Positions 47,432 to 47,770 of a DNA stretch of 64,000 bases are shown here, in pieces (positions within the stretch are counted from its first letter, which is position 1; every line of letters begins with the position of its first letter). The notes beneath the pieces are model-generated. The model saw nothing but the letters and a program-made list of their open reading frames with translations. It did not search any database and was not told the origin of the DNA. Where the stretch lies: IMG/VR virus record IMGVR_UViG_2834293421_000001, positions 1-64,000 of that record, one strand, 5' to 3'. A program made the translations under genes and the position numbers. This stretch comes from a virus (Duplodnaviria; Caudoviricetes).

Positions 47432-47461
47432 GCATAGGACAATTTTTAATAAACATAAAAT
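47432..47461 (+). promoter_or_regulatory. sigmaE-like promoter with overlapping SpoIIID-like box
   Basis: GCATAGG-N15-CATAAAAT; TAGGACAATT at 47435-47444. Confidence 0.58.
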
Positions 47462-47479
47462 TTAGTGGGGGTGGTTGCA

Positions 47480-47731
47480 ATGGCACCAAGAAAAAGCAGA
47501 GAAATAAAAGTTGAGGTAGTTTACCCAGAAGATCCATATTGGATTGAGGAAATAGAAAGAAGAAAAGCTAAATGGATACTTGATAGACAAAGAGAAAAAT
47601 ATGGGGATGAAGCATTGAGTATAGCTTACCCAATATGGATTAGAACAAAGGAATTAGAAGAAACTGGTTTGAGTTATGAAGAAGCTAAAGAAATAGCGAT
47701 TAAAGAATATAACGATAAACAAGGAGCTTAG
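47480..47731 (+). CDS. Small protein, candidate recombination directionality factor
   Basis: 83 aa, RBS GGGGGTG; function inferred from context. Confidence 0.5.
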   Translation: MAPRKSREIKVEVVYPEDPYWIEEIERRKAKWILDRQREKYGDEALSIAYPIWIRTKELEETGLSYEEAKEIAIKEYNDKQGA

Positions 47732-47770
47732 GCTCTTTGGCAATAAAAATTTGTACAAGGAGTGAGTTAA

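Follow-up and report, generated by a model that had tools for sequence, protein, structure and literature searches.

A composite promoter-like motif, consisting of a -35 element, an overlapping SpoIIID-type box and a -10 element, precedes an 83-aa ORF in the second of two tandem prophages, and the same motif recurs ahead of about 19 unrelated families of small proteins, 14 of which are linked to serine recombinase genes. The motif (47432..47461) is probably a promoter of the sporulating mother cell. The fuller reading, in which a sigma-E promoter with a SpoIIID-type box drives an 83-aa recombination directionality factor (RDF) that excises prophage 2 in the mother cell, is the one favoured here, albeit with only modest confidence. 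The motif would then probably serve to time prophage excision to spore formation.

The DNA analysed, referred to below as the window, is a 64-kb stretch that forms the start of a 74-kb provirus record. It is AT-rich, with a G+C content of 27%, and the host of both prophages is, by the names of identical host proteins, Paraclostridium (Clostridium) sordellii. At its left end, each prophage has a minus-strand gene for a large serine recombinase (LSR). The LSR of prophage 1 (integrase 1; 1..1530; 509 aa) is 50% identical, over its full length, to that of a Clostridioides element that interrupts sigK, and the LSR of prophage 2 (integrase 2; 41850..43442; 530 aa) contains Resolvase, Recombinase and Zn_ribbon_recom domains. 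Beyond the LSR, both prophages encode an ImmA-type peptidase and a cI-type repressor, a divergent cro, an antirepressor (of the Rha or Bro type) and early replication/recombination genes. The 83-aa gene is situated in the early operon, with the gene for a Bro-type antirepressor before it and that for a replication initiator after it; integrase 2 is encoded 4 kb upstream, in the divergent orientation.

A preliminary description of this DNA had implied a link between the prophages and sporulation genes. The insertion sites do not bear this out, since both prophages sit in genes of an ABC-transporter operon. A 69-codon frame that adjoins the integrase 2 stop codon contains the C-terminal 64 residues of an SsuB-like ABC-transporter ATPase (41644..41853, minus strand), truncated by prophage 2 on the attL side. 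Those residues are 91% identical to the end of an intact, 250-aa ATPase of Paraclostridium dentum, in which the ATPase, permease and binding-protein genes form one operon. Elements with an integrase-2-like recombinase occupy the same ATPase codons (approximately 188-194) in Clostridioides difficile and in a cryptic-clade genome. As to prophage 1, an SsuA-family binding-protein gene at 39245-39805 retains its N-terminal half only, and in P. dentum the other half of that gene lies 19.5 kb away, adjoining an integrase-1-like LSR gene. Judged from these sequences, both prophages split genes of one sulfonate-type ABC-transporter operon. Neither interrupts a known sporulation gene needed in the mother cell, as elements of the skin and SPbeta type do, and this operon is not known to have a role in sporulation. 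With no known sporulation gene interrupted, the usual rationale for excision, the restoration of a mother-cell gene, is therefore missing.

The motif of prophage 2 (GCATAGGACAATTTTTAATAAACATAAAAT) lies on the plus strand in a 51-nt gap between the Bro gene, which has its stop codon at 47426-47428, and the 83-aa ORF (47480..47731, plus strand). GCATAGG (47432-47438) is followed, after 15 nt, by the -10 element CATAAAAT (47454-47461). The -35 element, GCATA (47432-47436), fits the form KMATA, the spacing from ATA to CATA is 17 nt, and the SpoIIID-type box, TAGGACAAT (47435-47443), overlaps the -35 element and the spacer. A G-rich RBS (gtgggggtgg; 47467..47476, plus strand) precedes the ATG at 47480. 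The transcript of the 83-aa gene is predicted to start around 47467..47476, with a leader of approximately 12-16 nt.

The counterpart in prophage 1 (5711..5740, plus strand) consists of GAATAGGACAATTTT, 7 nt and CATATGAT, and the sequence ahead of the 67-aa ORF (5764..5967, plus strand) that it precedes is GAATAGGACAATTTTAGAAATTCATATGAT. The preliminary description had claimed a 13-nt identity and an exact CATA spacing between the two prophages, and both hold: the 13-mer ATAGGACAATTTT is present without mismatch at 47434-47446 and at 5713-5725, and CATA follows it after 7 nt at both sites. The complete ATAGGACAATTTT-N7-CATA pattern stands 26 nt before the 83-aa gene and, with the same interval between the 13-mer and CATA, also ahead of the 67-aa gene of prophage 1. 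The two genes are, as had also been stated, not homologous; their products are unrelated by BLASTP (E value of 12) and by hhalign (probability 0.15%). When the cassettes were aligned, the 5′ leader and the 3′ intergenic stretch matched beyond the 13-mer, whereas the coding parts did not. A third 13-mer-like site (44039-44051, minus strand, one mismatch) was dismissed as a chance occurrence, as it has no CATA and lies within a coding region. At a locus outside the window, L013, an extra copy of the 13-mer was observed at the junction of a partial gene duplication.

From base composition, chance recurrences of the exact 13-mer, which is found twice in the window, were estimated at approximately 0.01. 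With no more than one mismatch allowed, there were three matches in the window against 0.62 expected, a number reached in 1 of 100 shuffles. The looser pattern CATAGG-N15-CATA, taken alone, was not significant in the window (6 matches, 3.63 expected; 16 of 100 shuffles reached 6), nor was TAGGACAA alone enriched there (5 matches, 2.5 expected). In IMG/VR (viral_contigs), ATAGGACAATTTT-N7-CATA had 64 exact matches, compared with 9 for the mirrored pattern, and the same pattern was matched 85 times in contigs representing one genome per species. An RBS and an ORF were present 34-84 nt after the motif at 56 of the 64 viral matches and 44 of the 85 genome matches, versus 2 of the 9 mirror controls. 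It is apparent that the shared promoter-like motif is not a product of chance, as had been argued from its recurrence at the two window sites.

A search of five related genomes with TAGGACAA-N11-CATA yielded 11 matches, against one for the mirror control, and five of these were phage cassettes. As regards host sporulation genes with the motif in those genomes, five of the six non-phage matches had no ORF context; two to three lay, by inspection, inside coding sequence, and one C. difficile site, with CATACAAT as its -10 element, had no clear gene behind it.

The ORFs situated behind the motif formed 27 BLAST clusters. The singleton clusters 10, 11, 12, 14, 19, 20 and 22 were judged to be spurious frames (compositionally implausible ORFs or long unrelated proteins) and were left out of the family counts, as was locus L020. 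One family of approximately 250 aa from Bacilli (FAM 1) was kept apart, and the remainder constitute 19 families of 45-93 aa. The largest of these, FAM 0 (59-93 aa), includes the 67-aa protein of prophage 1. The 83-aa protein belongs to FAM 3, which corresponds to no known family and has few relatives: 9 clusters were found among 5.8 billion proteins, including one from C. difficile, and Romboutsia encodes an 88-aa relative.

Neither the 83-aa nor the 67-aa protein matched Pfam, PHROG or NCBIfam at E values of 0.01 to 0.1, and the 83-aa protein in particular matched no excisionase model in those three collections. Searches by fold and by sequence against solved structures gave no meaningful match for either protein, and PDB-chain profile searches, in which the SPbeta RDF chain was possibly not included, revealed no relation between that RDF and the 83-aa protein. 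GenBank phages, when searched by tblastn with the 83-aa, 67-aa and 93-aa proteins, gave no match, nor did a first scan of genome_contigs with the 83-aa protein. Both window proteins had been described as containing a beta-strand that ends in Pro, and a helix. The predicted fold of the 67-aa protein agrees with this, having three strands, ending just before Pro, and a long helix (pLDDT 84). For the 83-aa protein the strand was not predicted; its model consists of a low-confidence N-terminus (residues 1-18) devoid of strands and three helices (pLDDT 73).

RDFs are described in PMC12286644 as hard to find, having neither sequence nor position in common; by the same account, an RDF docks on the integrase's second DNA-binding domain, at the coiled-coil junction. 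Its defining effect is to turn the integrase towards recombination of attL with attR. All of the retrieved loci were searched for LSR genes with the two window integrases as queries. An LSR was present within the retrieved flank in 13 of the 19 small-ORF families, and for a fourteenth (FAM 5) it was located elsewhere in one of three records. The LSR gene was always placed upstream and divergent, at 37-5927 nt, or, as seen in two of the families, immediately downstream in the same orientation. The corresponding frequencies at control loci were 2 of 49 for motif matches without ORF context and 0 of 9 for mirror controls. The integrase was found at 17 of the 18 loci that encode a protein of the 83-aa type. 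When 31 full-length LSRs were compared, the small-protein family was the same in 144 of the 145 pairs with at least 40% identity and in none of the 320 pairs below 40%. The 83-aa gene is thus in the same element as its recombinase and inherited together with it, as would be expected of an RDF gene.

The distance between the LSR gene and the small gene ranged from 119 to 5927 nt inside one family, which suggests that the modules between the two genes are swapped and the pair itself is kept. Common descent of whole phages can account for part of this co-variation. The exception to the clade rule is provided by integrase 1 and the LSR of the sigK element, which share 50% identity and have small proteins that are not detectably related. 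In FAM 26, one record rated complete carries the motif and no LSR domain, and for families 8, 13, 17 and 24 no LSR was found in the flanking DNA examined. The larger proteins of FAM 1 are preceded by the same motif with no LSR within 8 kb, which implies that the promoter is not specific to RDFs.

Outside the species, the nearest relatives of integrase 2 were from Romboutsia (66% identity) and C. difficile (56%), both of which carry FAM 3 relatives. The C. difficile relative is a 58-aa ORF, divergent from the LSR gene and with its start 323 nt away from it, inside an element of approximately 18.7 kb, and the attB of that LSR is the same as that of integrase 2. Some 110 nt ahead of the ORF is found AGGACAA-N11-CATAAATT (in full, gtatcAGGACAAatctctaatttCATAAATT), in which GGACAA and CATA are again 11 nt apart. 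In a Clostridioides genome of a cryptic clade, an element of approximately 7.2 kb splits sigK. A small ORF (72 aa from a GTG or 83 aa from an ATG) is located about 970 nt from the LSR gene of this element, in the divergent orientation, behind ATAAGACAAG-N10-CATATTTT; with 17 nt from ATA to CATA and 27 nt from CATA to the start codon, the geometry is that of the window motif, with one change in the box. By its position and length, this ORF would correspond to CD1234, the RDF of skinCd. No relation of its product to FAM 0 or FAM 3 was detected.

A small excision factor encoded at a distance from its integrase is also found in TP901-1, a serine-integrase phage in which Orf7 is encoded in the early operon, a few genes after cro and not adjoining the integrase gene; a sporulation promoter is not known there, however, and the host does not sporulate. 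A close likeness is to SPbeta, an active prophage in which the LSR (sprA) is constitutively expressed and the small accessory gene, sprB, is far from the integrase gene, among phage early genes (PMC4191935). As reported there, sprB has its own mother-cell promoter of the sigma-E/K type and a short leader, the start site being 20 nt before the start codon; it is also induced by mitomycin C, by read-through after DNA damage; and excision is confined to the mother cell, with no phage production (PMC4191935). SPbeta interrupts the sporulation gene spsM, whereas the window prophages interrupt the ABC-transporter operon, and, in contrast to the window motif, the -35 element of sprB is called an imperfect match and no SpoIIID box is defined (PMC4191935).

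The CD1231/CD1234 pair of skinCd similarly comprises a constitutive LSR and a 72-aa acidic protein without database relatives; CD1234 depends on sigma-E and SpoIIID, and its start site lies 14 bp upstream from its start codon (PMC5025042). Unlike the window prophages, skinCd is a defective element in sigK, and its SpoIIID box (TGTAACAAT) does not overlie the -35 element but is placed 46 bp upstream of the start site (PMC5025042). The yin element, in yabG of Clostridium botulinum, is prophage-like and has a recombinase, a 53-aa RDF candidate picked with AlphaFold and a putative SigK promoter (PMC10747680). It differs in being a single strain-specific element in a sporulation gene, and no conserved composite motif is reported in the pertinent part of that account (PMC10747680). 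The arrangement in the window is, then, of a known kind, represented by SPbeta sprA/sprB, skinCd CD1231/CD1234 and candidates such as yin.

The best-surviving alternative holds that the motif is a real mother-cell promoter but that the 83-aa protein is not an RDF, acting rather as an anti-repressor-like switch, a sporulation modulator, or an integrase inhibitor or accessory factor. The location of the gene between those of the Bro-type antirepressor and the replication initiator would suit such a role, as would the presence of the motif ahead of genes without a nearby recombinase (FAM 1 of Bacilli, FAM 26) and the fact that no interrupted sporulation gene is there to be restored. The 83-aa protein also resembles no known RDF or excisionase in profile and structure searches, but known serine-integrase RDFs, in the description given in PMC12286644, have no common motif either. 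The tracking of LSR clades by small-protein families, and the location of the C. difficile relative so close to the recombinase gene in an element of 18.7 kb, argue in favour of an RDF. This alternative is considered rather unlikely; provided that the promoter is one of the mother cell, there is a fairly good likelihood that the 83-aa protein is an RDF.

The promoter class was assessed with a family-weighted profile of 56 distinct promoter sequences from 20 gene families. Positions that were not part of the search pattern also showed preferences across the 20 families: -2 was G or T (0.50/0.44), -1 was A or C (0.55/0.34), and in the -10 element the eighth base was T (0.64) or A (0.36), never G or C. 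Counted from the motif start, the RBS of the various families fell at +34 to +40, with start codons at +38 to +61. In its sequence, the resulting form, KMATA, 17 nt, CATAnnnT, fits the mother-cell sigma factors, and specifically the sigma-E type. The -35 element of sigma-E promoters is written KMATA, where K and M stand at its first two positions, and GCATA at 47432-47436 conforms to it; so does CATAAAAT, 17 nt after ATA, to the -10 form CATA---T at 16-18 nt from the -35 element.

The motif was also compared with published consensus features. In C. difficile, the -10 element is common to sigma-E and sigma-K (e.g. CATATTAT and CATATAAT), the -35 element is ATA in the sigma-E class and AC in the sigma-K class, and the usual spacing is 16-18 nt (PMC3789822); the same spacing rule is found in PMC517825, according to which Bacillus subtilis promoters of the sigma-E class differ from those of the sigma-K class by T versus C at one -35 position. 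The high-affinity SpoIIID consensus of B. subtilis is TAGGACAAGC (PMC11180830), and SpoIIID is a mother-cell regulator for which a leading G marks strong sites (PMC517825). The upstream box TAGGACAA matches this B. subtilis consensus at 8 of 10 positions, as does the predicted upstream box written as TAGGACAATT. The SpoIIID consensus proposed for C. difficile, KRTAACARK, differs (PMC5025042), and is matched at 7 of 9 positions in our own alignment. Steric interference by SpoIIID at sites over promoters is a proposed mode of repression (PMC517825), and the box over the -35 element could likewise repress rather than activate. The promoter architecture that the preliminary description had proposed for both prophages is recurrent and matches published features of the sigma-E and SpoIIID consensus sequences.

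Other promoter classes were considered and rejected. A SigH promoter would have a GAAT-type -10 element, which is absent at the right distance. In the case of sigma-A, the spacer from AGGACA to TAAAAT is just 14 nt, and a scan predicted no sigma-70-like site there. The sigma-G consensus fits worse than the sigma-E form. RNA contigs from four libraries (three studies) cover the 83-aa gene from 47323, 47357, 47376 or 47475, with little of the upstream genes; these contigs begin at different points, three of them ahead of the motif, and may stem from DNA carry-over, so that they speak neither for nor against the promoter.

A second box, GGACAAG, usually in the form GGACAAGC, was observed within 63 nt after the stop codon in 9 of the 19 families, mostly at 22-25 nt. 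Relative to the background in the same loci (0.006 expected per site), this represents an enrichment of approximately a hundred-fold or more. The box often comes after a short hairpin without a T-run and is located just before or over the RBS of the next gene. In prophage 1 it is an exact TAGGACAAGC (6009..6018, plus strand), agreeing with the SpoIIID consensus at 10 of 10 positions, and is situated between the 67-aa gene, 42 nt past its stop codon, and the RBS of the next gene. In prophage 2 it is GTACAAG (47753..47759, plus strand), which has one mismatch to GGACAAG and 6 of the 7 bases of the SpoIIID core; it lies 24 nt past the stop codon, immediately ahead of the RBS of the next gene (ATG at 47771). 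The Romboutsia relative has the GTACAAG variant too. By sequence, the small gene is bracketed by two putative SpoIIID-type boxes in direct orientation, an arrangement of which no description was encountered in the full-text literature searched on ATAGGACAAT or on SpoIIID with TAGGACAAGC.

The motif had further been said to be followed by an 83-aa gene and a hairpin. Both exist, but the hairpin (aaggagc-ttag-gctcttt; 47721..47738, plus strand; 7 pairs, one of them G-T) is not a canonical terminator: it spans the stop codon of the gene, has no T-run and was not called in a terminator scan. The minimum-energy fold prefers a larger stem, which covers the RBS of the next gene (-14.4 kcal/mol, z -3.44).

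In another explanation, the GGACAA boxes are recognised not by sigma-E and SpoIIID but by a different factor, such as forespore sigma-G or sigma-F, or a protein of phage or host that recognises the two directly repeated GGACAA boxes; or else they are mainly conserved boundaries of the cassette, where short-homology recombination lets phages exchange small genes. Sigma-G and sigma-F also use G-ATA and CATA, and G[AC]ATA, 17 nt, CATA resembles the sigma-G consensus too, but 44% of families have T at position -2, and what follows CATA fits CATAnnnT and not the sigma-G form. A border function would agree with the two direct GGACAA boxes that flank the cassette, with the alignment of the window cassettes in their flanks only, and with the second 13-mer at the duplication junction in L013; the fixed distance from the motif to the RBS and start codon argues instead for a promoter. 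The downstream box agrees with the SpoIIID consensus at up to 10 of 10 positions, and any other reader would have to be a conserved host factor, given that the motif spans Bacilli to Clostridia. This explanation appears improbable. Chance in AT-rich DNA, or functionless leftover homology between related prophages, would accord with the low G+C content of the window and with the counts of the looser pattern and of TAGGACAA alone, but is highly improbable in view of the excess over the mirrored pattern, the conserved context ahead of about 19 unrelated gene families, the conservation of flanking positions that were not searched for and the enrichment of the second box.

The favoured reading, a sigma-E promoter with a SpoIIID-type box ahead of an RDF gene, would work as follows. 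With its own promoter, the 83-aa gene would have a separate start of transcription within the early lytic operon. Following DNA damage, transcripts from the cro promoter would read through it together with the early operon, and during sporulation the 83-aa protein would be made alone, in the mother cell. There it would switch the constitutively made integrase to excision, as sprB and CD1234 do, while the prophage copy in the forespore would remain integrated. At the upstream box, SpoIIID may be a co-activator, which is its role at spoIVCA and CD1234, or, alternatively, may shut the promoter off after a pulse. At the downstream GGACAAG-type box, SpoIIID may halt the sporulation transcript before the replication and lytic genes; such a roadblock would explain excision without phage production as in SPbeta. 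The use of sigma-E, the binding of SpoIIID, the RDF activity and the roadblock are inferred here from sequence and by analogy.

A more far-reaching version, in which the cassette is a SpoIIID-gated two-box switch, with an upstream box that tunes a sigma-E promoter and a downstream box, devoid of an intrinsic terminator, that serves as a roadblock in the mother cell only, and mother-cell excision is a general phage strategy, is put forward tentatively and is itself somewhat doubtful. If correct, such a switch would permit free read-through in lytic induction and solo expression in sporulation, and the paired boxes would be a model for the expression of one early gene in the mother cell without the lytic programme. 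Many serine-integrase prophages of spore formers, irrespective of the gene that they interrupt, would then abandon the doomed chromosome of the mother cell and be kept in the spore, and mother-cell excision would be a strategy of the phage, not a gene-repair device of the host. It may then be asked what advantage excision in the mother cell brings to phage or host if it restores no gene of sporulation.

Excision that is timed to sporulation and effected by a serine integrase with a small RDF has been known from a few elements that split sporulation genes, and the data suggest that the arrangement is much commoner. New in this respect are the single composite promoter ahead of about 19 unrelated small-protein families, the second box behind the gene, the near one-to-one pairing of small-protein families and integrase clades, and the occurrence in full-size prophages within non-sporulation genes. 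If the favoured reading is correct, the promoter would offer a sequence handle for RDFs in spore formers and, with it, more integrase-RDF pairs for genome engineering.

As labelled, nearly all of the genome matches with ORF context were from Bacillota, and included Paraclostridium, Clostridioides, Romboutsia, Anaerotignum, Lachnospiraceae, Oscillospiraceae, Bacillus, Paenibacillus and others. Motif matches without ORF context were scattered among Bacteroidota, Acidobacteriota, candidate phyla and archaea. One of the small-protein families, FAM 2, was also observed in bins labelled Eggerthellaceae or Coriobacteriaceae, possibly through a binning error.

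It is apparent that both prophages split a single sulfonate-type ABC-transporter operon (39245-41853 in the window), the binding-protein gene being interrupted by prophage 1 and the ATPase gene by prophage 2. In P. dentum and C. difficile, related elements with serine integrases have these same two genes as their targets (loci L181, L184 and L194). In the C. difficile genome G005, a cassette encoding a protein of FAM 0, the family of the 67-aa candidate RDF of prophage 1, has its motif at G005:C1:2033641 (region 2032000-2069000), and an element with an integrase like that of prophage 2 occupies G005:C1:2050254-2068956, so that the two lie no more than 17 kb apart. 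This pair mirrors the tandem prophage layout of the window.

One cluster of relatives of the 83-aa candidate RDF of prophage 2 (P0005) is 134 aa long. In these proteins the 83-aa frame continues into a homologue of the next small ORF (47771-47893 in the window); a fusion or an error in sequencing accounts for this. Elsewhere in prophage 2, a short Phage_integrase-family gene (52387-52935) precedes a gene of the manganese-catalase family (53206-53886; Pfam Mn_catalase, E value 8e-59), the family to which the spore-coat protein CotJC belongs; this catalase-family gene may be sporulation-related cargo. An 85-aa protein (50856-51113), which combines a DNA-binding domain of the AbrB/MazE type with a zinc-ribbon-like motif at its C-terminus, is possibly a prophage-encoded transition-state or SpoVT-like regulator.

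The promoter-like motif was also found upstream of larger proteins, mostly of approximately 245-330 aa, in Bacillus, Paenibacillus, Niallia, Gottfriedia, Evansella and Gracilibacter (loci L095, L096, L101, L107, L124, L125, L128, L129 and L147). The ParB/Noc-like similarity of these proteins is only weak. No serine recombinase was detected within 8 kb of the motif at these loci, and a tyrosine recombinase is situated near two of them. The cassette of another family encoded behind the motif, FAM 2, was observed in Ruminococcus metagenome bins and in bins labelled Eggerthellaceae and Coriobacteriaceae (L102, L157). Members of the latter two families do not form spores, and it seems likely that the cassettes in their bins belong to a mis-binned mobile element.

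A chromosomal site in C. difficile (L196; G005:C1:360550) consists of ATATAGGACAAC followed by CATACAAT, a perfect sigma-E-type -10 sequence, with the spacing of the motif. There is no obvious gene within 260 nt of this site, which may be a sporulation promoter of the host or may represent a small RNA.

The motif may also serve as a short-homology crossover point. At locus L013, the Bro antirepressor gene is partially duplicated, and a second copy of the motif's 13-mer (5440-5480), lacking the CATA element, coincides exactly with the duplication junction, where it forms an in-frame portion of the Bro-N domain.
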